From positions 1 to 12,894 of the IMG/VR virus record IMGVR_UViG_2565956617_000006: a DNA stretch of 12,894 nucleotides; one strand, given 5' to 3'. The number at the start of each line of letters is the position of its first letter. Within the stretch, counting starts at the first letter, position 1. The stretch comes from a virus (lineage: Duplodnaviria; Heunggongvirae; Uroviricota; Caudoviricetes). The translations under genes were made by a program, and so were the position numbers. This document shows positions 1 through 12,894 of the stretch, in pieces. The notes below the pieces were generated by a model, which saw only the letters and a program-made list of their open reading frames with translations, made no database searches and had not been told where the DNA came from.

Positions 1-477
1 ATGAAACTCATCAGTAACGATCTGCGCGATGGCGATAAATTGCCGCATCGTCATGTCTTTAACGGCATGGGTTACGATGGCGATAATATTTCACCGCATC
101 TGGCGTGGGATGATGTTCCTGCGGGAACGAAAAGTTTTGTTGTCACCTGCTACGACCCGGATGCGCCAACCGGCTCCGGCTGGTGGCACTGGGTAGTTGT
201 TAACTTACCCGCTGATACCCGCGTATTACCGCAAGGGTTTGGCTCTGGTCTGGTAGCAATGCCAGACGGCGTTTTGCAGACGCGTACCGACTTTGGTAAA
301 ACCGGGTACGATGGCGCAGCACCGCCGAAAGGCGAAACTCATCGCTACATTTTTACCGTTCACGCGCTGGATATAGAACGTATTGATGTCGATGAAGGTG
401 CCAGCGGCGCGATGGTCGGGTTTAACGTTCATTTCCACTCTCTGGCAAGCGCCTCGATTACTGCGATGTTTAGTTAA
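1..477 (+). CDS. ybhB: YbhB, PEBP/UPF0098-family (Raf-kinase-inhibitor-like) cytoplasmic protein; host chromosomal gene on the bio side of lambda attB
   Basis: 158-aa ORF starting exactly at window position 1 (MKLISNDLRDGDKLPHRHVFNG...), with the PEBP-type D-P-D-x-P...H signature (CYDPDAPTGSGWWHW); recognised from memory as E. coli YbhB. It lies directly beside a sequence matching the lambda attB B-prime arm, as expected for ybhB. Coordinates include the TAA stop. Confidence 0.85.
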   Translation: MKLISNDLRDGDKLPHRHVFNGMGYDGDNISPHLAWDDVPAGTKSFVVTCYDPDAPTGSGWWHWVVVNLPADTRVLPQGFGSGLVAMPDGVLQTRTDFGKTGYDGAAPPKGETHRYIFTVHALDIERIDVDEGASGAMVGFNVHFHSLASASITAMFS

Positions 478-485
478 TCACTCTG

Positions 486-508
486 CCAGATGGCGCAATG
501 CCATCTGG
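486..508 (+). terminator. Hairpin just downstream of ybhB (CCAGATGGC-GCAAT-GCCATCTGG); possible terminator or RNA-stability element
   Basis: Perfect 9-bp inverted repeat with a 5-nt loop, starting 9 nt after the ybhB stop. There is no U-tract immediately 3-prime, so an intrinsic-terminator role is uncertain. Confidence 0.3.
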
Positions 509-567
509 TATCACTTAAAGGTATTAAAAACAACTTTTTGTCTTTTTACCTTCCCGTTTCGCTCAAG

Positions 568-725
568 TTAGTATAAAAAAGTTGAATGCGAAACGGTAAA
601 AACCATTAATATCAACGTTTTATAATTGATTCAGTCTAAAAAATAGACTGCATAATGATACAAAACACAACATATCCAGTCACTATGAATCAACCACTTA
701 GATGGTCTTAGTGACCTGTAACAGA
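568..725. other. Prophage attachment site attR (P-O-B-prime) of lambda type: core at ~568-582, phage P arm with Int arm-type sites at 583-~725
   Basis: The reverse complement of 555-582 reads CTTTTTTATACTAACTTGAGCGAAACGG, i.e. the lambda core (GCTTTTTTATACTAA) joined to the attB B-prime arm (CTTGAGCGAAACGGGAAGG) as I recall them. The other side (583-725, reverse complement ...CTGTTACAGGTCACTAAGACCATCTAAGTGGTTGATTCATAGTGACTGG...) resembles the lambda attP P arm, including two inverted arm-type Int sites (GGTCACTAAG at ~707-719 and CCAGTCACTATG at 676-687). The comparison is from memory, not an alignment. Confidence 0.75.
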
Positions 726-728
726 GCA

Positions 729-770
729 TTAGCGCAAGGTGATTTTTTTGTCTTCTTGCGCTAATTTTTT
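729..770 (+). terminator. sib/tI-like hairpin terminator (lambda int retroregulation element) at the b-region side of att
   Basis: Perfect 10-bp inverted repeat TTAGCGCAAG (729-738) / CTTGCGCTAA (755-764) with a 16-nt loop, followed immediately by TTTTTT (765-770). Position (~150-200 bp from the core on the P-arm side) and orientation (transcription arriving across att from the int side) match lambda sib/tI, and the sequence resembles the lambda tI hairpin as I recall it. Confidence 0.55.
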
Positions 771-1084
771 GTCAACACACTGGGTTAGCTGAATTTACAA
801 CCACGCTCAGTATCTCGATAAGCGCAGAGAAATGATGCAGTGGTGGGCGGACTGGATTGATGAAAAGGTGGAGTGATCCGCCTTAACCATTATCGAAGAG
901 CACAAAGCCTTGCAATCCAGTGCAATGCTTTGTGTATACCTATTTTCCCAAATTTGTTTCAGTAATATGTCGATCTCCAATTATTAGAATGGTACACTAA
1001 ACAACGTGCGCAATTACAATAATGTAGCGTATAAAAAAACAAAAGCTAATTATATTTTTTAAATAAACATAGTGAACTAAATAT

Positions 1085-2071
1085 ATGAGAAATTATAGCA
1101 TAGATACTATGAGGTTTGTAGCGTGCTTTTTTATAATAGCTGTTCATATAGGTGGGTACCCGCAACAAGGAGAATTATTTACAGAGGTATTTAGAGGTGT
1201 ATCGCGATGGGCTGTGCCATTCTTCTTCCTGGTTACAGGATATTTTTTATCATGCCAAAACAAAAGAAAACTACTATTAAGACTTACTAGGATAACATAT
1301 ATAACACTAATATTTAGCGTACTGTTCTTTATTTTTCAACTAACTTTGAACTATAAAGATGGATATTCATTAATTATAAGCATCATAGATCCATTTATTT
1401 TTATCGGTGGGTCTTATTTCCATTTGTGGTTCTTGCCTTCAATCTTAATAGGTATGATTTCAGTAAGTTACATGATAGAAAATGTTTCAGAAAATTTTGG
1501 AATCTCTTTAAGTATACTTATTATATTTATAATGTGGTGCGTTGATTTCTTTGGTACTGCCTACTTCTCACATGATATATATGAATCAACAAGAACTATT
1601 CTATCAATACCAACAATATATATAGGGTATTACTTATACACTAAGAAAGACATAATTATAAAATCTAACGGGAATTTATTGATTTTATGTATGCTAGCTT
1701 CCGTGGTTTTTTCCGTGATTGAGATTCTAATATACAAATCAATATATGGTTCACTTGCCAATATAAGAGAACTACCTTTATTTTCTGTTATTACTGCTAT
1801 AATAATACTAATGTTATCTATAAGATCACAAAGCACAAAAGAGACTGTTCTATCAAGGATAGGAAGAGATGATTCTATCGTCATATATCTTATTCACCCA
1901 CTATTTATAGTTTTAATATCAAAGGTGTTTAGGGTTGCTCATGAATATAACGGGATGGCTATTCTTGTGATTACATTTATTGTAAGCATTTCGTTTTCAT
2001 TGTTTGTCAAGAGTAAATTTCCTTCAATATATTCATTTCTTACTGGCGGTTTTATAAAAGAAACAAAATAA
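1085..2071 (+). CDS. Acyltransferase-3 family integral membrane protein; putative O-antigen O-acetyltransferase (Oac-like lysogenic-conversion moron)
   Basis: 328-aa ORF, very hydrophobic with roughly 10 predicted membrane spans and the N-terminal acyltransferase-3 R-x10-H motif (RFVACFFIIAVH). Coding sequence is strikingly AT-rich compared with the adjacent structural genes. It sits between attR and the tailspike, as oac does in Shigella phage Sf6. ATG at 1085 has only a weak SD; an internal ATG at 1109 is an alternative start. Confidence 0.8.
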   Translation: MRNYSIDTMRFVACFFIIAVHIGGYPQQGELFTEVFRGVSRWAVPFFFLVTGYFLSCQNKRKLLLRLTRITYITLIFSVLFFIFQLTLNYKDGYSLIISIIDPFIFIGGSYFHLWFLPSILIGMISVSYMIENVSENFGISLSILIIFIMWCVDFFGTAYFSHDIYESTRTILSIPTIYIGYYLYTKKDIIIKSNGNLLILCMLASVVFSVIEILIYKSIYGSLANIRELPLFSVITAIIILMLSIRSQSTKETVLSRIGRDDSIVIYLIHPLFIVLISKVFRVAHEYNGMAILVITFIVSISFSLFVKSKFPSIYSFLTGGFIKETK

Positions 2072-2081
2072 ACCATAAAAC

Positions 2082-2106
2082 ACACCACCATAATATATGG
2101 TGGTGT
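2082..2106. terminator. Bidirectional hairpin between the convergent acyltransferase and tailspike genes
   Basis: Perfect 10-bp inverted repeat ACACCACCAT / ATGGTGGTGT with a 5-nt loop, lying between the acyltransferase stop (2069-2071) and the tailspike stop (2129-2131). A/T-rich runs flank it on both sides (TAAAA upstream, AAATTATTT downstream). Confidence 0.45.
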
Positions 2107-2128
2107 ATCAAATTATTTCTGAGCTGAT

Positions 2129-4027
2129 TTACATGTCATTTTCTGAATTATAAATAAGTACAACCTGACCTGAATACGTTGCTTGTGATGACCACCCTGT
2201 ATCCATATTGTATGGCCTGATCCTTACTTGGCTTGAACTAATTAATCTAGCTTTTATAAGCCATGTATCATCGTTTGTGTTTGCTGCTACCTCCTGAATT
2301 GATACTGTATTTGCTGGCTGGAATTGATCTGGTATTGCTCTTGTTACAACCCTTGACGATCCAGATACTGTTAGTGTGAAAAACTCCCTACCCGATGTTG
2401 ATATAGATTGGCAACCTTCAGAAAAGTTGTTTCTTATATCTGGTCTGGATGATCTTCCTTCTGCTATGGTCTTCATGCGAATAACGCTAAGTGGCATTAC
2501 AGTTCCCGTTGTATTACGGAATCTGCAACCTGTTATCTTAACCTGAAACGGATTTGATATAAGATTTATTGCAACTCCATGTTCAGGTACTAACCAGTTG
2601 CATGAGCTAACAGTAAATCTCGCACCGTCTGAGTTTGATTCAATTAAGCATCCATCGAAATAGCATCCAACAAAAATATCTGCGTTAGACATTATAACCA
2701 CACGCCCTTTTGCGCTATCAGCAGACTGATTTGGATAAAAATGACTATTACTAAAAGAATTTGCTCCTTTACGTAAATACATAACATCTGCATACTGTGA
2801 ACCAATAACTAAGTCTGAGAAGTTATTATCATAGTTGTTGATATCCAAGCCAACGCCATCTGTAACGTTAGTTGGGTAAGAAGCATTCCAATCTGGTTGT
2901 TGAAATATAAACGTTTTTCCCACATTTAATTCATGTGGCTGTGAGTCATTAGGTTCAGTCTTTAATCCATAACGCAAGTATCTTGTCAGTAGACCTCCCA
3001 ATATAGTCACTTTCAAAAAGTCATCATAAACCCTAATTGCGCCGGAAGCTTTCCAGTTAGCATCGATATTAGGATTAAATACCACGATGTTTTCAATTGG
3101 TCTAGAGCCGTTAACTTTACGAAAATCTAGAACAGGTTCTGTAGAAGGAAATGCTCCAATTGCTAAAAGAGATGGATTCAACATAGAAAAATTCAAACAA
3201 TCTGTTATTGTAAATGGACGTGATACATAGTAAGTGCCCTGAGTCATATCAAAAACAGTGCCACCCAAATTGTACATGTTTGGATCTTCTCTATCAGTTG
3301 AGTAAGTTGTTTTGCGATTTCTCTTGATTATACTATCTCTCCACAAATCCAGTGCATCAGAGCTGTCGAATGTTGAATCGCATGGTTTTGCTCCGTAATT
3401 TCTTGGGTCATCTACTGAATACCCAGAAAGAAATCCAACACACACCCATGTTGAGTCTGGAGTGGAGCCTGGCGTAACTATATAACCATCAATTGGTATA
3501 TTTCCTATATATGAATAATACATTCCATCTGAATATTTGAATGATTCGTATTTATTTAATATCACTCCGCCAACTGACATATCTCCAGATTTTTTGTATA
3601 CATATGGCATGTAATCGCTATAAACATTACCACCATATGTGCTCCCGACAATCTTATCTCCATTGTTTGATGAAATATCAACTCGCAACTGATCAGGATC
3701 ATACTTCAGTAAATTAGGAAAATAGAACTGCTGCACACCATATGCATCATAAACAGCCATAGAGTGGCCTTGCACAGTTACGAACTTGGCAATCTGTCCG
3801 TTATATACAGGGTAACCAGCAGCGTTAATGATGATTGGTTGCGAAACAGGAACGTGAGAGCCGTCTTCGTTCTCCACATAAACCTGAATCTGGTTTTCAG
3901 GGTTTTCCGGGTCAGTGTCAATTTTACCGATATAAATTTTGCCATTGGCTACGGCTTTAAAAGAACGAGCCATAGTGAAGAGTTGCGAAGGCATGCTTAC
4001 CACAACATTTGCGGTGATATCTGACAT
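2129..4027 (-). CDS. Tailspike protein: P22-type N-terminal head-binding domain plus divergent C-terminal receptor-binding/depolymerase region
   Basis: Translation from the ATG at 4027 gives [59 protein letters not shown]...[15 protein letters not shown]...LKYDPDQ, closely matching the P22 gp9 head-binding domain ([13 protein letters not shown]...) as recalled. SD GGAG lies 7 nt upstream of this ATG. The ORF-track start at 4075 adds 16 residues with no homology and is rejected. The remaining ~520 aa are AT-rich, rich in G/S/T/N/Y/D, and do not match the P22 gp9 body. Confidence 0.88.
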
Positions 4028-4052
4028 TTCATTGCTCCAGACGAATGATATG

Positions 4053-4075
4053 ATGCAATCATGATGTGATTGCAT
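4053..4075. promoter_or_regulatory. Candidate operator: inverted repeat ATGCAATCA-N5-TGATTGCAT in the divergent mnt/tailspike intergenic region
   Basis: Perfect 9-bp arms separated by 5 bp, 26 bp upstream of the tailspike ATG and ~75 bp upstream of the Mnt-like start. Size and symmetry fit a site for a tetrameric RHH repressor. No convincing sigma-70 -35/-10 pair could be assigned by eye. Confidence 0.4.
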
Positions 4076-4148
4076 ACCGAAATGGTACTATTGAGTATTT
4101 ATCCAGTAGGTTACGATGCCATTCCACCCAACTGGTGAGGCATCAAGG

Positions 4149-4409
4149 ATGTACAGCAAATACGACGAGGCGCAGTTTCACTTGAGACTTCCGCATGAAC
4201 TCCACGCGAAAATTAAACAGCGCGCGAAGATGAATAACAGGTCGCTGAACTCAGAGATAATTGCAGCGATTGAAGAATCATTGGCTAAACAAAGCTCTGC
4301 ATCAGTTTACATTGACGATGCAGAGCGTATGGCAGAACAACAATCTGATATGGTTAAGAAAATTGTCTTTGATACGCTCAAGGAGCTATATAAAAAAGAC
4401 AGCAACTAA
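4149..4409 (+). CDS. mnt: Mnt-like ribbon-helix-helix (Arc/MetJ superfamily) repressor
   Basis: Clear similarity to P22 Mnt as recalled: QFHLRLPHELHAKIKQRAKMNNRSLNSEIIAAIEESL versus HFNFRMPMEVREKLKFRAEANGRSMNSELLQIVQDAL, and DDAERMAEQQSDMVKKIVFDTLKELYKK versus NDAERLADEQSELVKKMVFDTLKDLYKK. Start chosen at ATG 4149 (86 aa, GAGG SD 8 nt upstream); the ORF track's ATG at 4116 (97 aa) is an alternative. Orientation is opposite to the late genes, as for P22 mnt. Confidence 0.8.
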   Translation: MYSKYDEAQFHLRLPHELHAKIKQRAKMNNRSLNSEIIAAIEESLAKQSSASVYIDDAERMAEQQSDMVKKIVFDTLKELYKKDSN

Positions 4410-4429
4410 CCATCCATTACGGAGGATTT

Positions 4430-4507
4430 ATGCAAAGAGATATGATGAATATTACATTCTACATATTTGGTTTTTGCACTTTCCTGGTGTTTGCAAAGCT
4501 ATTCTGA
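4430..4507 (+). CDS. Hypothetical 25-aa hydrophobic micro-protein (MQRDMMNITFYIFGFCTFLVFAKLF)
   Basis: ORF found by eye, below the ORF-track size cutoff. GGAGG (4421-4425) lies 4 nt upstream of the ATG. It starts 20 nt after the mnt stop and overlaps the 3-prime end of the convergent gp16-like gene by 9 nt. The residue run ITFYIFGFCTFLVF could form a single membrane span. It may be spurious. Confidence 0.25.
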   Translation: MQRDMMNITFYIFGFCTFLVFAKLF

Positions 4508-6496
4508 CAACGCATCAGACTTAGCCCCCTGCGTCATAGCGTTAATTGCCTTTTGTGCCTGCTGCATGGCTTTCTCAAACGCTGTTGATCCGCGTGGGGT
4601 GTTTGCCATTCGGAGCATTGCATTTCTGAATGGCTCGCTCTCATAGGCGCGAGTGAGAAGTCCGTAGCTTACTGCTGCGCCAGTTGTCGCCGGGTTCATT
4701 GCCGTCCCATACCCAATAATGAACGGGATAGTTTGCTGCCCTGTGGGTGTTGTTACTGCCGCTTTTGCAGCCTGCTGCGTGGATTGCAGGTAGTTTTTCA
4801 ATCCTTTCAGATAAGCGGCTTCCTGACCTTTAAATGTGATGCCAGTCTGGTTTTGCAGGATGTTAAGCTGCCGAAGGAACTGGTCAGGGGAACCACCTGA
4901 TTTCTCCATCGCCTTTCCAATGATGCCATTGCGCATTTGCGCCCTGCCAACACGACCAACTGAGTTATACAGAGTCTTAATTTCCGATTTGTTCTTGCTG
5001 AATAGCATGTTGTTGACAACTTCCGGCGTAAGATCGCCTTTCATGAGAACATTCTTCAGCCTGGTATTCTTTAGTTTCGCCGCTTCGTCAGCGTAAACGG
5101 CATTGGCCTGCTGATATTTACGGAGAGTATCGCTGCCAAGATTCTGACCAATGGCACCATTGATATCGTCGGTCATTGCCTTGTAAACTCGCTGAATGGC
5201 AGCATCGGAACGGTTTGGTAATACCGGTCGCTCACCCTTCACGTCCATTCTGAACTGGCTGCGCAGGTCGCTTAATTGCTTCAAATCCAGATTTACCGGA
5301 CCATCAGGGCCAGCATTGCGAACAAGCTCATCACGATATGACTGAAGTTTTGAAATTGTCTCGTTATCAGCTACCTTACCAAGCTTCTGCAGATTAGATA
5401 TCTCAGTATCAATCTGCTGAATTGCTCGCGCAGGCTGAATGTTTACTCCAGCCATAGCATTCTGAACCTGCTCCAGTCGATTACCGGCGGCACGACGAAT
5501 TCCTGATGTTTTCGTTTTAAGGCTGCCAATAACAACCGCTGGATCATACTCGCCGAATTTATCAGCAAATCTCTGCACCAACTGACTTCTCGCTTCCTGT
5601 TGCGTTGCTCTCATTCCGCTTGTGCCAGCCAGGGGAATATTTTCTGCTGTAGTCTGCGCCATTTTCCCGACGCGGGAAGTAGGCTGTAACAGGTCTGTGG
5701 TGTGCAGAGGCACTCCTTCACGCTCTGCAAATCTGATAGCTTGCTGCGCTTCTGGTGCAATAGCACCACGAACGCCACGATAAGCAGCGCCTAATCCACG
5801 TCCGGCAGCGTTAATAGCGCCGCCAGCCAGAACGCCAACGCCTAAATCGGTGGCGAGTGCTTCCGCATCATCTTTCGCACTATTTGCAGCAAGTGATCCA
5901 ACTGCGTTTTCAGCGAGAAGGCGAGTTGCCCCCTGAGCAATTCGACCAGCAAGTGTTGGTGCCTGTGCTGCCGCTCTCTCAACGCCAGCAGGAGTGAGGT
6001 AAGGCAATGCTTCAGCAAATACCCTTCCCTCTGTCGTTTGTGGAGTCAGCGCGCCTTGCTGAAAGCCAAAGTCCTGCTCTAATCCCTGCGTTGTTACTCG
6101 TGGCGCTGGTTGATATGTACCATCGCCAATACCGAGTTTACCGCCAGCCCAAGCCGCCGCGCTTGTTACAGCATCGGCAACTGATGCAGGTATGTTTGCC
6201 ACGTTCACGCCAGCCTGCACCAGTCCGCGACCTGTCTCTTTTACTGCTTCACCAAGATCAGACATAAATCCACTTTGCTGTGGTTGTTGCTGTGCTACTG
6301 GTTGTTGTGTCTCCACTGGCTGCACAGATGGCAATGGATAGGCAGCATAGAAAGCTTGCTTAGCCTGCTCTGCATTTTCTCCGGCTTGCGGGGCCACGAC
6401 TTCATTGAAGTATTGCTCCTGAGCCTGCGCTTTTTGTTCTGGTGCTAACGCCTGATACTGTGGAGAGGCGATAACATCTTTCCATGCTTTAGCCAT
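4499..6496 (-). CDS. Ejection (internal virion, E) protein, P22 gp16-like
   Basis: 665-aa Ala/Gln/Gly-rich ORF, last gene of the ejection-protein trio before the tailspike/immI region, as in P22 gene order 7-20-16. Its ATG overlaps the upstream gene's stop (TAATG). Assignment is by synteny and composition. Confidence 0.65.
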   Translation of the reverse strand: MAKAWKDVIASPQYQALAPEQKAQAQEQYFNEVVAPQAGENAEQAKQAFYAAYPLPSVQPVETQQPVAQQQPQQSGFMSDLGEAVKETGRGLVQAGVNVANIPASVADAVTSAAAWAGGKLGIGDGTYQPAPRVTTQGLEQDFGFQQGALTPQTTEGRVFAEALPYLTPAGVERAAAQAPTLAGRIAQGATRLLAENAVGSLAANSAKDDAEALATDLGVGVLAGGAINAAGRGLGAAYRGVRGAIAPEAQQAIRFAEREGVPLHTTDLLQPTSRVGKMAQTTAENIPLAGTSGMRATQQEARSQLVQRFADKFGEYDPAVVIGSLKTKTSGIRRAAGNRLEQVQNAMAGVNIQPARAIQQIDTEISNLQKLGKVADNETISKLQSYRDELVRNAGPDGPVNLDLKQLSDLRSQFRMDVKGERPVLPNRSDAAIQRVYKAMTDDINGAIGQNLGSDTLRKYQQANAVYADEAAKLKNTRLKNVLMKGDLTPEVVNNMLFSKNKSEIKTLYNSVGRVGRAQMRNGIIGKAMEKSGGSPDQFLRQLNILQNQTGITFKGQEAAYLKGLKNYLQSTQQAAKAAVTTPTGQQTIPFIIGYGTAMNPATTGAAVSYGLLTRAYESEPFRNAMLRMANTPRGSTAFEKAMQQAQKAINAMTQGAKSDALSE

Positions 6497-7884
6497 TAAT
6501 CACCCCATAGTGAAGAAAAGTTACTGCTGGCTGCTGGCTGTGATACCTGTGCAGGTTGAGATTGCTTCCGCTGAGATTTACCAACATTAACGTTATATTG
6601 TTGGTTGTAATTGTTGGTGTATTCCTGAATTTCACGAATCGACTGCTGCATAGCCTCCGGGCTTGAATAGTCAACCTGCGGCATCCCCTGAAAATACATC
6701 TTCGCTTCTGCAACGGTGTTAATACCACTGGCACCCATGTCCCTTGCTGCCGCCACGCCCTGATTCTGCATTCTTCCCTGAATACGTTGTGCTGAGTTAT
6801 ATAACTGGCGCTGCTCTTTTCCTGTTAATCGGCTGCGAACATCAGCACCAATTGCCGGGTTACCTGCACCGCCGGTCATTCCTGTCATGAAATCGAGAGC
6901 AGAAGCGTCTGCATTTGCGATCGCGTCGATATCCTTCTTCATGGCATAGTTTTGTGCTGATGCAGACGATGTTGCAGGCGCTGCGATTGAACTGGCAGGA
7001 ACGCGAACCATATTCCCCTCGTTGTCGATGCCTTCGTAGAACGCATTAGCCCCAGCGCCGTGAAGCTTCCCGCCTACCGTTACAGTTCTGCCATCTGATA
7101 ACTGAACTGTACGCTCGTCATTCCCAGCGGTTCCTCTTGTTGACGCTCGCTGCATTGCCAAATCCTGCCCGCGTCGCGCAGTAGAAGCAGATAAATCCTG
7201 ACCGCGCATCGTGATGTTTTGACCTCGTGCTGTTAGCGCCTCTCCGGCCTGATTGCTGCGGATTGTCTCTGCCAGTCTGCCTCTGTCAATCTCACGACCA
7301 GCCATCTTGTCCTGAACATTGAAGTAATCAATCGGACCAAGAGCAGCCATTCCGAGGTGATCAACAAACTCGCCAAATCCTGAAGGATTCTGCTGATACA
7401 TCTGAGCAACGTTGTTAGGGTCAACGCCGACGCGCGCCAGTTCCTTGGCGTTGTTTTGCAGCCATGATTGCATTGCTTCTGGAGACGATGACGCAAGGCG
7501 TGCGCCAGCCGCTAAGGTGCCGATAGAATTACGCTGGTCTTCATCAATGAATCCCATGCCTTTACGAACGGATTCAATCTGGTCTGGATATTGAGTAGCC
7601 AACTGACGCAAAGCACCGCGATCACCAGACGCATAAGCATTAGCGTACGCCTGCTGAAATTCTTTCTGCCGCTGAGCCTGCTTTTCCTGCTGAAGCACCC
7701 CTGCAATACCTGAAAGGCCTTGCAAAGCAGTCAGCCCAACATTGTTAGCGCCTGAACGCTCAATATCATTGTTCTGCCTGATAAGCTGAAGCGTATTGCC
7801 GATGTCATTTACGCTCGGAGCGTTTGAGTTGACGCCGCCGATACCAGCCAACAATCCGCCGTTTGTTCCTTGCCAAGTAGCCAT
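6496..7884 (-). CDS. Ejection (internal virion, E) protein, P22 gp20-like
   Basis: 462-aa ORF between the gp7-like and gp16-like genes (P22 gp20 is of similar size), coupled to the downstream gene by a TAATG overlap. Assignment is by synteny. Confidence 0.65.
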
Positions 7885-7893
7885 GATTACCCC

Positions 7894-8586
7894 TTAAAAC
7901 AACGAGCCAAGCAGGCCAAGTCCGCCGCCAATTGCCGCACCTAATCCAGTGCCAAGTCCTGGAACAATAGAGCCAAGAGCAGCGCCAGTCATAGCCCCTG
8001 AAGCTCCGCCGCTAATTGCTGTCTGAAGACCTGATGGTTTATTGGCATTAGCAGCGGCAAGAGCCGCACTTTGCTGCGAAATCTGACTCATGTTGTTGGC
8101 ATATGTCTGCCCGGCGTTTGCCTGACCTTGCAGTGCGCCAAGACCAATATTTGCCAGATTCTGGTAGTTGTTCATCTGACCAGACAGCCACTGCTGACCA
8201 AGCGTTGGTGCGATTGTTGCTAACTGATTACCGGTTGCAGTGGAACCCAATCCACCTGTTGCTTCCGCTGCCGCCAGACTCTGATAGCGAGCCTGACCAG
8301 CAAGATCTTTGTACTGCTGAGAGTTGTAATACTGGTTAAGTGCCTGACCTTGCCCCTGAAGAGAGGAAAGATTCTGCAATTGTGATACGTACTGCTGAGC
8401 GAGTGGCGTGAACGGAGCAAGGTTTTTCATGATCGTCTGCCACTGCTGATTCTGCAGGTCTGCGGCATACTTCTGAGCTTCTGCTGCATACTTTGCGCTT
8501 TTATCGGACCCACCTTTCCCGCCTTTTTCAGGGCAATAAGGTTCCTCTCCGCGCAGTTTTCTGCCCAGCTTAAATGCATATAACAT
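7894..8586 (-). CDS. Ejection (internal virion, E) protein, P22 gp7-like
   Basis: 230-aa ORF beginning MLYAFKLGRKLRGEEP..., Gln/Ala-rich centre and a Gly-rich hydrophobic C-terminus (GLGTGLGAAIGGGLGLLGSLF). Size and position match P22 gp7. A GGGAG SD precedes the ATG. Confidence 0.7.
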   Translation of the reverse strand: MLYAFKLGRKLRGEEPYCPEKGGKGGSDKSAKYAAEAQKYAADLQNQQWQTIMKNLAPFTPLAQQYVSQLQNLSSLQGQGQALNQYYNSQQYKDLAGQARYQSLAAAEATGGLGSTATGNQLATIAPTLGQQWLSGQMNNYQNLANIGLGALQGQANAGQTYANNMSQISQQSAALAAANANKPSGLQTAISGGASGAMTGAALGSIVPGLGTGLGAAIGGGLGLLGSLF

Positions 8587-8588
8587 GG

Positions 8589-9044
8589 CTATCTCCCGTG
8601 ATTCAGGAAGTCGATTAGTTCTTCGCGTGTAGCACTGTAAAATGTCACGTCATCCACGCCTTTGAAGTATTTCTTGATGGTTCCGACACGCTTAAGGCCA
8701 ATCATTGCGCAGTACATCTGCCCGTGGCGGAATTTGCGCGCAGCGAACGATGTGACGCACTGAACGGTGGTGTTAGTCAGAATGTATCGCCAGAACGCCA
8801 GCCCAATTTCCTTGCTGAAGCCGCGAATCTCTGGCAGGTACATGGCGTGGCAATCGAATGTCAGCGGCTGAATCTCCTGATAGTAAACAATGCCGCCGAA
8901 CTGACCGTACACGTTCACCTCAAAGTAACGGCATTCAGGCTTGTAGTCGTATCCATCACCATTGTTGCTTCCGGCAATAATGTCAGGGTGATTTCCGACT
9001 GCTTCGATCAGGTCGATATTTCGCGTTGGTTTGAACTGAATCAT
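8589..9044 (-). CDS. P22 gp14-like protein (position-based assignment)
   Basis: 151-aa ORF between the tail needle and the gp7-like gene, the slot of P22 gene 14. Start taken at the ATG at 9044, which overlaps the needle TGA stop (TGATG); the ORF track begins one codon earlier at a GTG (9047). Confidence 0.5.
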   Translation of the reverse strand: MIQFKPTRNIDLIEAVGNHPDIIAGSNNGDGYDYKPECRYFEVNVYGQFGGIVYYQEIQPLTFDCHAMYLPEIRGFSKEIGLAFWRYILTNTTVQCVTSFAARKFRHGQMYCAMIGLKRVGTIKKYFKGVDDVTFYSATREELIDFLNHGR

Positions 9045-9892
9045 CACTGCTCCGCAATGATTTTGATGGTTGTGGCATTAAACGCCGCACCATTCGACTG
9101 AATGGTTAACGTACTGCCATTTGTGGCAAGAAATCCGTCTTTATCCACGCTGAAGAATGTAGCTAACAGGATGTTGTCGGTTGTTGTCGCCGCATTACGA
9201 CTGCTGACCAGCGTATCAGGAACAGAGCCGGAAAAGGTTAGCTGCATTGACCTGTTGGCGGTTCCGCTGGGCCACGTCCCGACAATCGACATCTTGAAGA
9301 ACAGGGTTTTGTTCTCGTTGAACACAACCATCTTGTTGTTAACGGTGTCGAAGAATGGTGCCAACGAGCCGGATGACGGCGTGAGCGTTTTCAGCAGGCT
9401 AACAAGGTTGGTCGGCGCTGTCGGGATGGTTACAGATACGCCAGAGTAAACAACCTCTGACTTTTTGCGAGTAGTGGCATACTCCAGAGCATCAATGCGC
9501 GTTTCATGGTCTGAAAGCGTGTTTTGAATGGCGATAACTTCATCAGTCAGATAATCAATATCGTTTTCTGCTGTCGTTAATCGGGAATCAAGGCCGACTA
9601 TCGCCGATTCTGCGTTAGTGATCCTTGTTTCGTGGTCCTGAATCTTCGCTTCAGCTGATGCCAGTCGAATTTCGTGATCGACCAGAATCACATCCTGCTC
9701 ATCGTTCCTGACCTGTGCATCATAAGCGCCCTGTCCGGCCTCGTTGGCCTTGTTAGCCACGTTACCAACATCAGTGCCCTGTGCGATAACGTAAAGCAGA
9801 TACGACTGCGAGAAGATATTGCGTGGAAGGACTGATGTGTCGAGCCGTGTGGCCTGAATGATTACCGGCACATTGAGATTCGAATCAGCCAT
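9044..9892 (-). CDS. Tail needle (P22 gp26-like) with an extra C-terminal knob domain
   Basis: N-terminus [68 protein letters not shown] matches P22 gp26 as recalled. It is followed by heptad-like repeats ([30 protein letters not shown]...[10 protein letters not shown]) and then ~110 aa of beta-rich sequence that P22 gp26 lacks, as in Sf6-type knobbed needles. Confidence 0.8.
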
Positions 9893-11310
9893 TACTCAAT
9901 CCTTATCTGGCAGCCTGACAGAGTGACAGGTGACTTCGTGATAACGCGCAATTTGAAACCGACATTTTTCCTGATGCGCCCTACTCGCTTCCACAAAACG
10001 CGTTTGTCGTAAACGAACGGTTCATTCTGCTCAATCATCTGCTCACGCCCGTAATTGATGCCGTCAGTGGTTGCAGAGAGGAACAGGCGGTCAGCGTACT
10101 GCGCAACGCCAGTTGAAGATTCAACCTCAAGGTCGAACACCCGGGCGTTATCCGCTTTGAACAACGGAGTAAACAGCAGGTGTTCCTGCTGCTTGTCGTA
10201 CTGGCTGCTGATATCGAACTGCAATTTCCCGGTCACGGATTCCAGCTTATCGCCGCACGTTATCTGATTGCCTTCGTAAATGAAGTCGATAGCGCGGTAC
10301 ACATCGTCATACAAGCCAGTTTTCAACACACACCATTGCGGACCATTGGCGCTTGAAGATGCGTCGTACACGAGAACATGGCGCGGAAGGTGGATAATCA
10401 GCAACTCATGAGCATCAAATCGCAGAGACTCCATCACACCCTCAGCCAGTTCATCAGCAGTGTAGGAGCGGAGAATTTTCTCAATGCTCGCGCTGGCGAT
10501 TGGTGATACCTGACCGGAGCCGATGATGTATACAGACGGCGCACCTGTTGCCGGATTGCTGATGAACGCATAGGAATCAGCGAATGGAGTTTTACAGTAG
10601 GTTCCGGCAATACCTTTCTGCACCATCAGCGATGGCTGTGCAACATACAAAGCGGCACCAACGGTGGTTGCGCCAGTAAGGGAGAAATATTCAATAGTCG
10701 ATGAACCAAAGCAGACGATGAAGTCTCGCCATGTGCCGATGCCGATGATGCCGTCAGGCTGCGATTCTGCGCGATATTGTGCGCTGTATCGGTCAGGATG
10801 TGATTCGTCTTCAAGGTCAGTGATAAACCATGAATCAGTGCCGTCTTTTGACCACGCATAACGCCCACGTAAGCGCGTAATGTCGCGAACTGAACCTAAC
10901 TCGTACTGTGTGAATCCGCTGTCTGTAGGCCAGTTTGAGACGGTTTTAACCGTGCCATCATAGCGATACTCGACCAGTTGACCATTAACGCCTATTGCCT
11001 GTGATGTCCTACCGTGTGCCATTGATACGCGACCACTTCCGGCGACGTCACCGACTTCGCTTTCGCCTTTGTAGAGCTTGCCACCACACACGCGATAAAC
11101 AGCATTCCGCGCCATGTTGTACTCGACGCCGCGCGATACGCCGTTTACATCAGAGCGTTTGGCAATGCCCGGGAATGAGCGAAGATATCCGCTGCTGTTC
11201 AGGATTTCTTTGGGTGTAGCCAACATATTCACTGGCAGATAGTCGATATAGTCGGCGTTTCGAAAGTCTTTGCCGACACCTTTCATAAGCGGAAGTTGCT
11301 GAATAGGCAT
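9892..11310 (-). CDS. Head-completion / tail-accessory protein, P22 gp10-like
   Basis: 472-aa ORF, the same length as P22 gp10 as recalled, in the gp4-gp10-gp26 order. AGGTGA SD upstream; TAATG coupling to the needle gene. Confidence 0.75.
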
Positions 11311-11318
11311 TTATTCAC

Positions 11319-11801
11319 CTATGCGTTTGGGATATCGCCATCAATCAGAGGGAGATCGCGTGGATAATATCGGTCAGATGTGAACACGTCATATTTATTA
11401 CCCTGTCCTACAGGAAAATCTCCACGTCGTCGTATTGAAGGAACAACCAGAGTGTCGGTCATCAAGGCATCATATGAGCGTTGGGCGTTACTGAGAACTT
11501 GCGGAGTTGGTTCAAGGCTGTAATCAGATAGCATTCTCAGCAATAACTGATAGCCTACTGCGTGTTTGTATTTTCTTGGAAGACCTGACTCATCATCTGG
11601 TAATGGCTGCTCATCTCCAGTTGCGAAAGCGTAACCAATGTCGCCGGGGTTAATCATCCACTCGGACATCATATCTTCCAGATCAATTACACCATCTTCA
11701 ATTGATTGCGGCTCAACATCAGTCAGCGATGCATTAGAAGCAATAGCAAACTTACGAAGCGCAAAAAGGACGATCTCACCCTTTGTCAGTACTGTTGCCA
11801 T
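11319..11801 (-). CDS. Head-completion / tail-accessory protein, P22 gp4-like
   Basis: 160-aa ORF; its N-terminal region ([35 protein letters not shown]) resembles P22 gp4 ([35 protein letters not shown]) as recalled. Lies immediately upstream of the gp10-like gene. Confidence 0.75.
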   Translation of the reverse strand: [160 protein letters not shown]

Positions 11802-11961
11802 TGTCTGCCGCCTTACGACCTCGCTTACTGGTCGGTTTCAATTCATCAACTGAGGCAACAAAGCCCAACTTTTCGAAAAACTGGAAGTCTTTTTCTGCGA
11901 TAACGGCCTGTACATGCCCGGATTCGTTATCTGCGGCAAGGAATACACTCATGCGATCCAT
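11776..11961 (-). CDS. Hypothetical 61-aa protein between the coat and gp4-like genes
   Basis: ORF with an AGGA SD 6 nt upstream of its ATG, placed directly after the coat-gene terminator. Its 3-prime end overlaps the gp4-like start by 26 nt in another frame. Basic C-terminus (KPTSKRGRKAADNG). No homolog recognised. Confidence 0.35.
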   Translation of the reverse strand: MDRMSVFLAADNESGHVQAVIAEKDFQFFEKLGFVASVDELKPTSKRGRKAADNGNSTDKG

Positions 11962-11971
11962 ATTGTTTCCT

Positions 11972-11998
11972 TAAAACATAAAAGGGGCGGAAGCCCCT
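11972..11998 (-). terminator. Intrinsic terminator immediately downstream of the coat gene
   Basis: On the minus strand: tandem stops TAATAA, then AGGGGC-TTCC-GCCCCT (6-bp GC-rich stem, tetraloop), then TTTATGTTTT. This is a classic rho-independent terminator shape. Confidence 0.6.
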
Positions 11999-12003
11999 TG
12001 TTA

Positions 12004-12894
12004 TTACGGATTACCGAAGAACTGACCGCCCATGTGAGGGTTAAAGCACACATATGCAGGCAGTAAGTCGAAGCGCATTTTTTGCACGTTGGCATCGCCA
12101 TCTGCGTATTTATGTACGCGGATGGAGAAACCTTCATATGTTGCAACAGCAGAATCAATACTGTGCAGTTTCGGCAGTGGGATAGAGCCAAGTCCACAGA
12201 AGAACTTGTTATAGAACAGGTTTGGCTTCATTGTCTGGCTAGCAGTGCCTACTACAGATACGGCATCGCCTGCCGCTACCTGACGACTTACAGAGTTGTA
12301 CTGCGGGTTTGTAGTGTCATAAATCGGAACACCAGAAAGCGTAACCGTCACATCGCCACCGCTGTCTGAATTAGCATCAGCAGTAACCGTTGCAGTGAAG
12401 CTAATTGGTGTGGCTCCGTTATACAACGCCTGTTTGGTCTGCTGTTGCAGCCAGTAGGTATTGGTGAATTTGACCTGATCACCAGCTTTCAGAAAACCTG
12501 TAACGCTGGCTGTCGCTCCGGTCAATGTTACAGTGAACTGGTATGAGTCTTTAACTGCGTTATAGGTAACAGTTGGCTGTGTTTTGACTGTCAGTGTTCC
12601 GCCAAATGCCCCCTGCGTACGAGAGGCAAGCCCATTAGACATCAGTGCGCGAATGCCGCCAAAATTGGTTGGGATCTGCGCATTCTCCCATGCAGTACGA
12701 ACCAATTGATCTGAAGCGTGCAAACCAGTCTGCGCATCAGCAAGTCGCTGTGCAGACCATGGATCCATTACAGCATAGTTTTCACCTTCATTAACGCCGA
12801 GATCTTTCAGGAAAGATGCCGTCTGCGCAACATCAGACCATTTGGTGATTGGAGTATTGGGGCTACCAAGTGACAACGCACCGTTATTCATCAT
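12004..12894 (-). CDS. Major capsid (coat) protein, C-terminal ~296 aa; 5-prime end lies beyond the window
   Basis: ORF runs off the right edge of the window. It occupies the slot just upstream of gp4, where gene 5 (coat) sits in P22-like phages, and is followed by tandem stops and a strong terminator, typical of a highly expressed capsid gene. Assignment is by synteny; I could not confirm sequence identity to P22 gp5 from memory. Confidence 0.6.
   Translation of the reverse strand: MMNNGALSLGSPNTPITKWSDVAQTASFLKDLGVNEGENYAVMDPWSAQRLADAQTGLHASDQLVRTAWENAQIPTNFGGIRALMSNGLASRTQGAFGGTLTVKTQPTVTYNAVKDSYQFTVTLTGATASVTGFLKAGDQVKFTNTYWLQQQTKQALYNGATPISFTATVTADANSDSGGDVTVTLSGVPIYDTTNPQYNSVSRQVAAGDAVSVVGTASQTMKPNLFYNKFFCGLGSIPLPKLHSIDSAVATYEGFSIRVHKYADGDANVQKMRFDLLPAYVCFNPHMGGQFFGNP

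Follow-up and report, generated by a model that had tools for sequence, protein, structure and literature searches.

The stretch of DNA analysed here (hereafter the window; 12,894 nucleotides, IMG/VR record IMGVR_UViG_2565956617_000006, positions 1 to 12,894) starts in the Escherichia coli chromosome at att-lambda and carries, between this attachment site and the tailspike gene of a P22-like prophage, an open reading frame (ORF, positions 1085 to 2071) that encodes a full-length, very divergent membrane acyltransferase of the acyltransferase-3 (AT3) family. Based on its sequence, surroundings and distribution, we consider it probable that this gene is a lysogenic-conversion moron of P22-like phages, most likely acetylating the O-antigen of E. 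coli OX18. In this window the module is a leftover of a prophage that has since been cut down.

A stand-alone AT3 acyltransferase

An initial annotation of the window, made from the letters only, had proposed a stand-alone acyltransferase-3 membrane protein of about 330 residues at this place, and the profile search bears this out: the 328-residue product of the plus-strand ORF matches Pfam PF01757 (Acyl_transf_3; InterPro IPR002656) at E 9.4e-28 (97.6 bits against a cut-off of 31), from residue 3 to residue 306 and over model positions 1-322 of 326, that is, over the whole domain. The ORF also matches PHROG 3333, "O-acetyltransferase" (E 3e-10). The three motifs that are common to 30 experimentally characterised bacterial AT3 carbohydrate acetyltransferases (PMC7448272) are all present, namely R/K-X10-H in the first transmembrane helix (TMH1; R10-X10-H21), the FFXISG-type motif (P45, then F46-F47-F48-L-V-T51-G52) and RXXR in the loop between the second and third helices (R66-L-T-R69). 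In a pairwise alignment with Oac of phage Sf6, R66 and R69 fall on Oac R73 and R76, and FFFLVTG on Oac FFSISG. Throughout an alignment of 36 homologues (22-35% identical), residues W42, A43, P45, F48, G52, G109, H113-L114-W115, G181, E213, G260, Y268 and H271 are invariant, while H21, F46 and F47 are conserved in at least 90% of the sequences.

The AlphaFold2 (AF2) model of the protein (pLDDT 92, pTM 0.91) has a predicted polytopic, all-helical membrane fold with about 10 TMHs, in agreement with the membrane protein proposed at the outset, and among solved structures it comes closest in fold to the transmembrane acyl-CoA transferases HGSNAT and GWT1; a search of the PDB by sequence returned only spurious matches to membrane subunits. 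No second Pfam domain was found in the 328 residues and the AF2 model ends after the AT3 helices; given that an SGNH domain is absent, the enzyme is, like Oac, of the "AT3-only" kind.

The protein search yielded 44 homologues, and among 5.8 billion proteins the gene forms a single cluster (99% identical), every named member of which comes from E. coli, with the next match at 35% identity; among the 44, no named match is from E. coli unless it belongs to that cluster. A tblastn search of 50,697 phage records (E <= 1e-3) gave one weak, partial match of 29% identity only and did not recover Sf6, Sf101 or other known converting phages. In NCBIfam (E <= 0.01) there were only sub-threshold VanT-type matches (32 bits against a cut-off of 900) and no equivalog match of the WecH/YiaH or OpgC/MdoC type, the presence of WecH and OpgC models in that collection being unchecked and no pairwise comparison having been run.

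The surroundings of several relatives are informative about the company that such genes keep. Two homologues in the range of 28-35% identity (P0007 and P0008) lie in polysaccharide clusters, together with glycosyltransferases, Wzx, Wzy and sulfotransferases. The closest one (P0002, 35% identity) is a low-GC gene (GC, guanine plus cytosine) that converges with the gene of a phage tail-fibre-like protein of more than 1,187 residues and adjoins a phage UmuD-like gene. This tail-fibre-like protein ends in an SGNH/GDSL esterase domain, and the locus (L012:2030-7198) may pair an acyltransferase with an esterase. Additionally, seven distant relatives (28-33% identity) were located on IMG/VR contigs, all seven of them lower in GC than their own locus: L021 and L022 follow a tail fibre or tailspike, L020 lies between a tail fibre and an integrase, L023 adjoins an integrase, L025 is placed between the tail-fibre-assembly and sheath genes of a P2-like phage, and L019 and L024 stand beside another O-acetyltransferase. 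Positions beside receptor-binding proteins or integrases are the usual ones for receptor-modifying conversion genes (PMC8787464).

An insertion between the integrase end and the tailspike

The slot occupied by the acyltransferase is the spacer between integrase and tailspike, as follows from the integrase 3' relic at 791-876, and this spacer exists in nature without the gene. In the E. coli genome fECg99.1 the att-lambda site is likewise occupied by a P22-like prophage, which shows 96% identity to window 1-954 and has a related tailspike; the acyltransferase is missing from it, and just ~100 bp separates the sequence resembling window 1-954 from the tailspike. Because homology to fECg99.1 stops at ~948 and picks up again inside the 3' end of the tailspike gene, the insert corresponds to ~949-2128. 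In phage Dewey, likewise, a full integrase is followed 240 bp later by the tailspike stop codon, with no acyltransferase in between. These two natural empty sites confirm the separate acquisition that had first been proposed from composition.

The composition itself calls for a more qualified statement. The GC content is 29.8% in the ORF and 25% in the 136 nucleotides upstream, against 50-51% in the phage ejection and structural genes and 52% in the host gene ybhB, so the sharp difference originally claimed holds with respect to these genes. It does not hold for the adjoining receptor-binding part of the tailspike, which is also low (37% GC), and the break in composition is therefore one with the rest of the phage and not with the immediate neighbour. 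Presence or absence in otherwise homologous phages, combined with deviant composition (30% versus 50% GC), is what marks the gene as a moron. The features of the insert and of its two borders are the following:

791-876, plus strand: 3' relic of the integrase gene, Dewey/HK620-type, its last 86 nt (RefSeq pseudogene fragment; the match lies within the last 86 nt of the Dewey integrase coding sequence)
949-1084, plus strand: insert-specific upstream region, 25% GC, beginning where the fECg99.1 homology ends (~948) and presumed to hold the gene's own promoter
1085-2071, plus strand: AT3-only membrane acyltransferase, 328 residues (PF01757, motifs and fold)
1243-1248, plus strand: T6 tract, site of the natural -1 frameshift allele P0046 (10 contigs), with loss of the N-terminal catalytic region
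1707-1712, plus strand: T6 tract, site of the natural -1 frameshift allele P0050 (2 contigs), with a truncated protein
2079-2109: GC-rich hairpin between the two convergent stop codons, terminator-like on both strands (terminator scan and folding)
2129-4027, minus strand: tailspike, with an open frame that extends to 4075 (P22 head-binding domain PF09008, E 6e-66)
2129-3640, minus strand: tailspike receptor-binding domain, with a beta-helix depolymerase fold
~3641-4027, minus strand: N-terminal P22 head-binding domain of the tailspike (PF09008)

The relic at 791-876 is also part of the attP-adjacent stretch (564-935) that matches lambda/434-type records.

With regard to expression, a tI/sib-like hairpin followed by a T run at ~733-775 on the plus strand, at the place where phage 434 has an annotated terminator, should stop read-through coming from ybhB. 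Since this tI-like terminator lies upstream, the acyltransferase would need a promoter of its own within ~776-1084. A sigma-70 scan of the upstream plus strand found no convincing promoter (counts were under the shuffle expectation), the best candidates of a second scan being 8-of-12 matches, and no clear Shine-Dalgarno sequence was found upstream of the gene. Phase variation of the Dam/OxyR type, as in the P22 gtr operon, was considered and rejected, given that 949-1084 contains one GATC only. At the other end, the hairpin at 2079-2109 folds with -17.5 kcal/mol on the plus strand (z -4.5) and -23.3 kcal/mol on the minus strand (z -4.7), the better U-rich tail being on the side of the tailspike transcript. 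Two minus-strand ORFs that overlap the acyltransferase (1630-1884 and 1939-2091), as well as the ORF at 807-980, which has no Pfam match, were dismissed as chance frames of AT-rich DNA, and an Rfam search of window 1-4600 returned no RNA family.

The gene contains three T6 tracts (starting at 1127, 1243 and 1707), and public E. coli assemblies hold frameshift alleles at two of them; a -1 frameshift at the 1707 tract reproduces the 210-residue P0050 product exactly. These alleles could be the outcome of decay, of sequencing error or of phase switching.

Linkage to the tailspike and association with OX18

In order to follow the gene among its hosts, we used a set of 5,426 complete E. coli genomes. 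The acyltransferase is present in seven of them, in all cases with the ORF and every catalytic motif intact, and the receptor-binding region of the tailspike occurs at 100% identity in exactly the same seven genomes, plus a diverged copy in fECg99.1. Five of the carriers have the prophage at att-lambda (Ec40743, PM22, JNE170426, LR-51 and 23-AB02114), while in two (2014C-4587 and JNE181771) it sits at a dacD/sbcB site and looks complete, with ~39 kb from integrase to tailspike. The existence of two insertion sites indicates at least two acquisitions. The two backbones share just window 816-4382 (99.4% identical), the end of which falls inside the Mnt/Arc gene; no nucleotide match between them was found for the gp16-type DNA-transfer gene (4499-6496), and the genes after 7217 are 97.3% identical, a pattern from which 4382-7217 appears to be a mosaic joint just past mnt. 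The pairing with the tailspike that adjacency had suggested is hence found on two different prophage backbones.

Between these backbones the acyltransferase differs by five substitutions, three of which are non-synonymous, and the flanks by seven each, whereas the tailspike gene itself (2129-4075, compared with L002) shows zero nucleotide differences in 1.95 kb. This suggests that the tailspike alone was exchanged more recently, or that it is under purifying selection. No Pfam or PHROG family was matched by the tailspike receptor-binding domain. Copies of the latter, 50-70% identical, are joined to N-terminal adaptors of other kinds (PF18668, T7 tail-fibre N-terminus), in part on contigs of ~72 kb, and the domain thus appears to be a mobile module common to different phage types. 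A 68%-identical tailspike (P0074) reaches a contig edge, which makes its neighbourhood uninformative on a following acyltransferase. The length of the tailspike is 648 residues as an ORF and 632 in RefSeq (the extra part being 4028-4075); in the long form the Pfam head-binding match does not set in until residue 17, which favours the shorter start.

The O-antigen cluster of 2014C-4587 was found in 12 of the 5,426 genomes, and it can be identified as OX18 because two strains, JNE170426 and JNE181771, have been typed OX18:H2 and OX18:H19 (PMC8084502); the OX18 cluster was described as unique by DebRoy et al. (PMC4732683). For Ec40743 and 2014C-4587, a literature search by strain name brought up nothing on the serotype. 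OX18 is the type of five of the seven acyltransferase carriers (Fisher p 4e-13) and of six of the eight carriers of the tailspike type (Fisher p 7e-16), values that refer to phylogenetically non-independent genomes, and fECg99.1, with its diverged tailspike copy, is of the OX18 type as well. OX18 strains are thus hosts of phages with this tailspike. Seven of the 12 OX18 genomes are without the acyltransferase, so that, if the enzyme acts on this polysaccharide, OX18 would exist in modified and unmodified forms.

A prophage remnant in hosts with different O-antigen loci

The host boundary of the window and the remaining phage genes were delimited as follows:

1-477, plus strand: ybhB (kinase-inhibitor homologue), host gene on the bio-side flank of att-lambda (NCBIfam PRK10257 equivalog, E 1e-103)
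568-582: O core of attR (POB'), of the lambda type; phage 434 matches from its annotated "O core of attP" onward
583-790: P-arm-like phage sequence (~89-90% identity to lambda/434-type records over window 564-935)
4116-4409, plus strand: Mnt/Arc-type repressor gene (Pfam Arc, Repressor_Mnt)

The flank gene is also named ybhB in the annotation of Ec40743, PM22, JNE170426 and LR-51. The att core, directly after ybhB, reads ...CTCAAGTTAGTATAAAAAAG..., and because this lambda-type core is followed by P-arm-like sequence the junction at 568-582 is attR, as the position attributed to the gene in the initial annotation required. From there on, the window holds the late end of a P22-like prophage: tailspike and Mnt/Arc gene, ejection proteins (gp16, gp20 and gp7 types), genes for the tail needle and for head completion, and the first part of the capsid gene. 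The Mnt-like gene has 97 residues as an ORF and 86 in RefSeq, the mechanical ORF extending further upstream (4116-4169).

In all the att-lambda carriers examined, what is left of this prophage is flanked by a frameshifted ISEc52 and a truncated lambda-type integrase (window 4499-12894; L001, L008, L009 and L026). The deletion ends are nested: the genes from portal to tailspike persist in JNE170426, the break falls within the capsid gene in Ec40743 and PM22, and in LR-51 it falls within the tail-needle gene. The window agrees with Ec40743 and PM22 at every one of its 12,894 nt (100% identity), and with JNE170426 at all but 3. Early, lysis and packaging genes have all been lost from the prophage, so there is no phage left to protect, and self-exclusion, which had been put forward as a function of the gene, does not apply to this window.

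The same remnant (0-3 mismatches in 12.9 kb) is found in hosts whose O-antigen clusters are of three unrelated kinds, namely OX18, O28ab-type (Ec40743) and rfbBA-vioA/CDP-glycerol-type (PM22) (L004:20025-26208, L006:13947-19728, L010:24430-35054). The hosts of the exact window thus no longer encode the OX18 cluster, and one relic in three settings implies replacement of the O-antigen locus around a fixed prophage. The simplest reading of these sequences would be that the locus was replaced by recombination after the remnant had formed, leaving acyltransferase and tailspike behind as orphans.

Proposed role and competing explanations

In the mechanism that we propose, the acyltransferase would have entered P22-like temperate phages as a lysogenic-conversion moron, in the spacer that separates the tailspike from the integrase/att end, where it is probably transcribed alone from the AT-rich region 949-1084, up to the hairpin shared with the convergent tailspike gene. 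An acyl group, probably acetyl, would be taken from cytoplasmic acyl-CoA and passed across the membrane by means of the TMH1 histidine and the arginine motifs; by analogy with characterised AT3-only enzymes and with the HGSNAT/GWT1 fold, its recipient would be a sugar hydroxyl on a glycan that faces the periplasm. The O-antigen is a plausible substrate, and the most likely acceptor would be the unit of OX18, a polysaccharide which is also the most plausible target of binding and cleavage by the neighbouring beta-helix tailspike. The receptor displayed by lysogens would then be modified and their antigen changed. In the window, the module is a leftover of a prophage cut down by an ISEc52-associated deletion, in hosts with other O-antigen clusters; the original exclusion role is gone, and the present activity of the intact ORF in these hosts is uncertain.

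Several observations weigh against this proposal. The tailspike limits the hosts that can be entered, so that any passenger gene would show the same OX18 association, and OX18 as the acceptor is supported just indirectly. The identical, intact gene in hosts with O28ab-type and vioA-type clusters is neutral at best for an OX18-specific role. Natural frameshift alleles, together with the three non-synonymous substitutions out of five, mean that constraint on the protein may be weak, and neither a convincing sigma-70 promoter nor a clear Shine-Dalgarno sequence was found upstream. A telling position does not by itself prove the role: O-antigen conversion by coliphage Kapi1 was not explained by the candidate genes that it carries in this slot (PMC8787464). 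Finally, no paper on the structure of the OX18 O-antigen surfaced in a literature search that had OX18 as one of several terms. To our knowledge, no such structure has been published.

The trivial alternative, that the reading frame is open only by chance, in AT-rich DNA, or belongs to a degraded pseudogene, could appeal to the very high AT content, to the missing Shine-Dalgarno sequence and to the weak promoter matches; it is nevertheless extremely improbable, and is refuted by the full-length Pfam match, by the conservation of motif positions in 44 homologues and by a confident predicted fold that matches known transmembrane acyltransferases, while AT-rich random sequence would be full of stop codons. 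A rather unlikely competitor is that the acceptor is some other envelope glycan (enterobacterial common antigen, colanic acid, capsule, lipopolysaccharide core or osmoregulated periplasmic glucans), common to all E. coli or varying independently of the O-antigen, the linkage to the tailspike being merely physical. This would suit the persistence of an identical gene under three different O-antigen clusters, the many acceptors that AT3-only enzymes are known to use (PMC7448272) and an OX18 association produced by tailspike host range alone. On the other hand, the NCBIfam search (E <= 0.01) gave nothing beyond weak, sub-threshold VanT matches, and the named matches among the 44 homologues include no E. 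coli protein from beyond the cluster of the gene itself; the phage relatives stand beside receptor-binding proteins and integrases, where receptor-modifying genes are usually placed; and with so few mismatches in the remnant, retention after the O-antigen switch may only mean that there was too little time for decay. A variant of this idea, to which we attach a low probability, is that the enzyme is untied to the O-antigen read by the tailspike, acting on a widespread E. coli glycan or with broad acceptor tolerance, and that the T6 tracts serve as on/off switches, by which surface acylation would be phase-variable in an emerging HUS-associated lineage (HUS, haemolytic uraemic syndrome). Such a reading would explain why an intact gene is kept in a decaying prophage across three O-antigen types.

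The remaining explanation concerns the present state of the gene in strains of the Ec40743 and PM22 type, in which it might be a mere orphan, intact but with no cognate acceptor or unexpressed, without phenotype and decaying with the prophage. We regard this as unlikely, if somewhat less easily set aside. The differing extents of the ISEc52-associated deletions, the non-OX18 clusters of both window-identical strains, the T6 frameshift alleles seen elsewhere and the weak promoter and ribosome-binding signals all point in its direction. Against it stand the intactness of ORF and motifs in every complete genome with the gene and the ability of AT3 enzymes to take related sugars, through which cross-activity on another O-antigen may occur; moreover, it refers to the present host only and is compatible with the origin of the module as a conversion gene of P22-like phages, which we continue to prefer.

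Significance

OX18 is an emerging serogroup of Shiga-toxin-producing E. coli (STEC), unrecognised by commercial antisera, which has caused fatal HUS (PMC8084502). With the gene in five of the 12 complete OX18 genomes, strains of this serogroup may come in acylated and non-acylated versions. If this is true, the two forms matter for antiserum design, for glycotyping, for vaccine antigens and for the choice of phages or tailspike depolymerases. The locus is also a natural series, its members being a live prophage that has the gene, a related one that lacks it, nested remnants driven by an insertion sequence and hosts with a switched O-antigen, from which one could learn how genes that modify a receptor move together with those of receptor-binding proteins, and what their fate is after the host changes its O-antigen. 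The principle is known from Sf6 oac and P22 gtr and is here extended, not replaced by a new one; what is new is a very divergent phage-borne AT3 moron tied to OX18 STEC.

Comparison with known systems

The solved structures closest in fold are remote in every other respect: human HGSNAT and fungal GWT1 come from eukaryotes, are larger, use other acceptors and share 10-16% identity with the protein, and the comparison uses a predicted model on our side. The fused AT3-SGNH enzymes of Salmonella (OafA, OafB and GtrC of phage BTP1) share the AT3 motifs and the modification of O-antigen, and some are prophage-borne (PMC7448272, PMC4413052); unlike OafA, OafB, OatA and GtrC family II enzymes, the protein described here has no 11th helix and no periplasmic SGNH domain, and ends at residue 328.

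At the level of the phage, the nearest systems are Dewey, Huey, Louie and the fECg99.1 prophage, which share with the window the integrase 3' end, the spacer up to ~948 and the tailspike head-binding domain, and in the case of fECg99.1 additionally a related receptor-binding domain and the same att site; all four are without the acyltransferase, with ~100-240 bp from the integrase (or its relic) to the tailspike stop codon.

The initial annotation had likened the locus to that of Sf6 oac, and the comparison holds for the layout but not for close kinship. Oac (gene 15, with its relatives Sf101 OacB and Oac1b) is also AT3-only, with 333 residues against 328 here, and has R/K-X10-H, FFxxSG-type and RXXR motifs; nevertheless, identity is 27% over the first 95 residues only (pairwise E 2e-4), and, as tblastn found no close phage match either, we rejected the gene as an orthologue of Oac, OacB, OacC or OacD. 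The acceptor of Oac is the rhamnose backbone of the Shigella flexneri O-antigen, whereas the presumed acceptor here is E. coli OX18, and, unlike Sf6, the locus has a lambda-type att system and a neighbouring integrase cut down to an 86-nt relic. In Sf6 the order is tailspike, terminator, convergent oac and int, with oac downstream of int, and the same slot, the same convergence and an intervening terminator-like hairpin are found again in the window.

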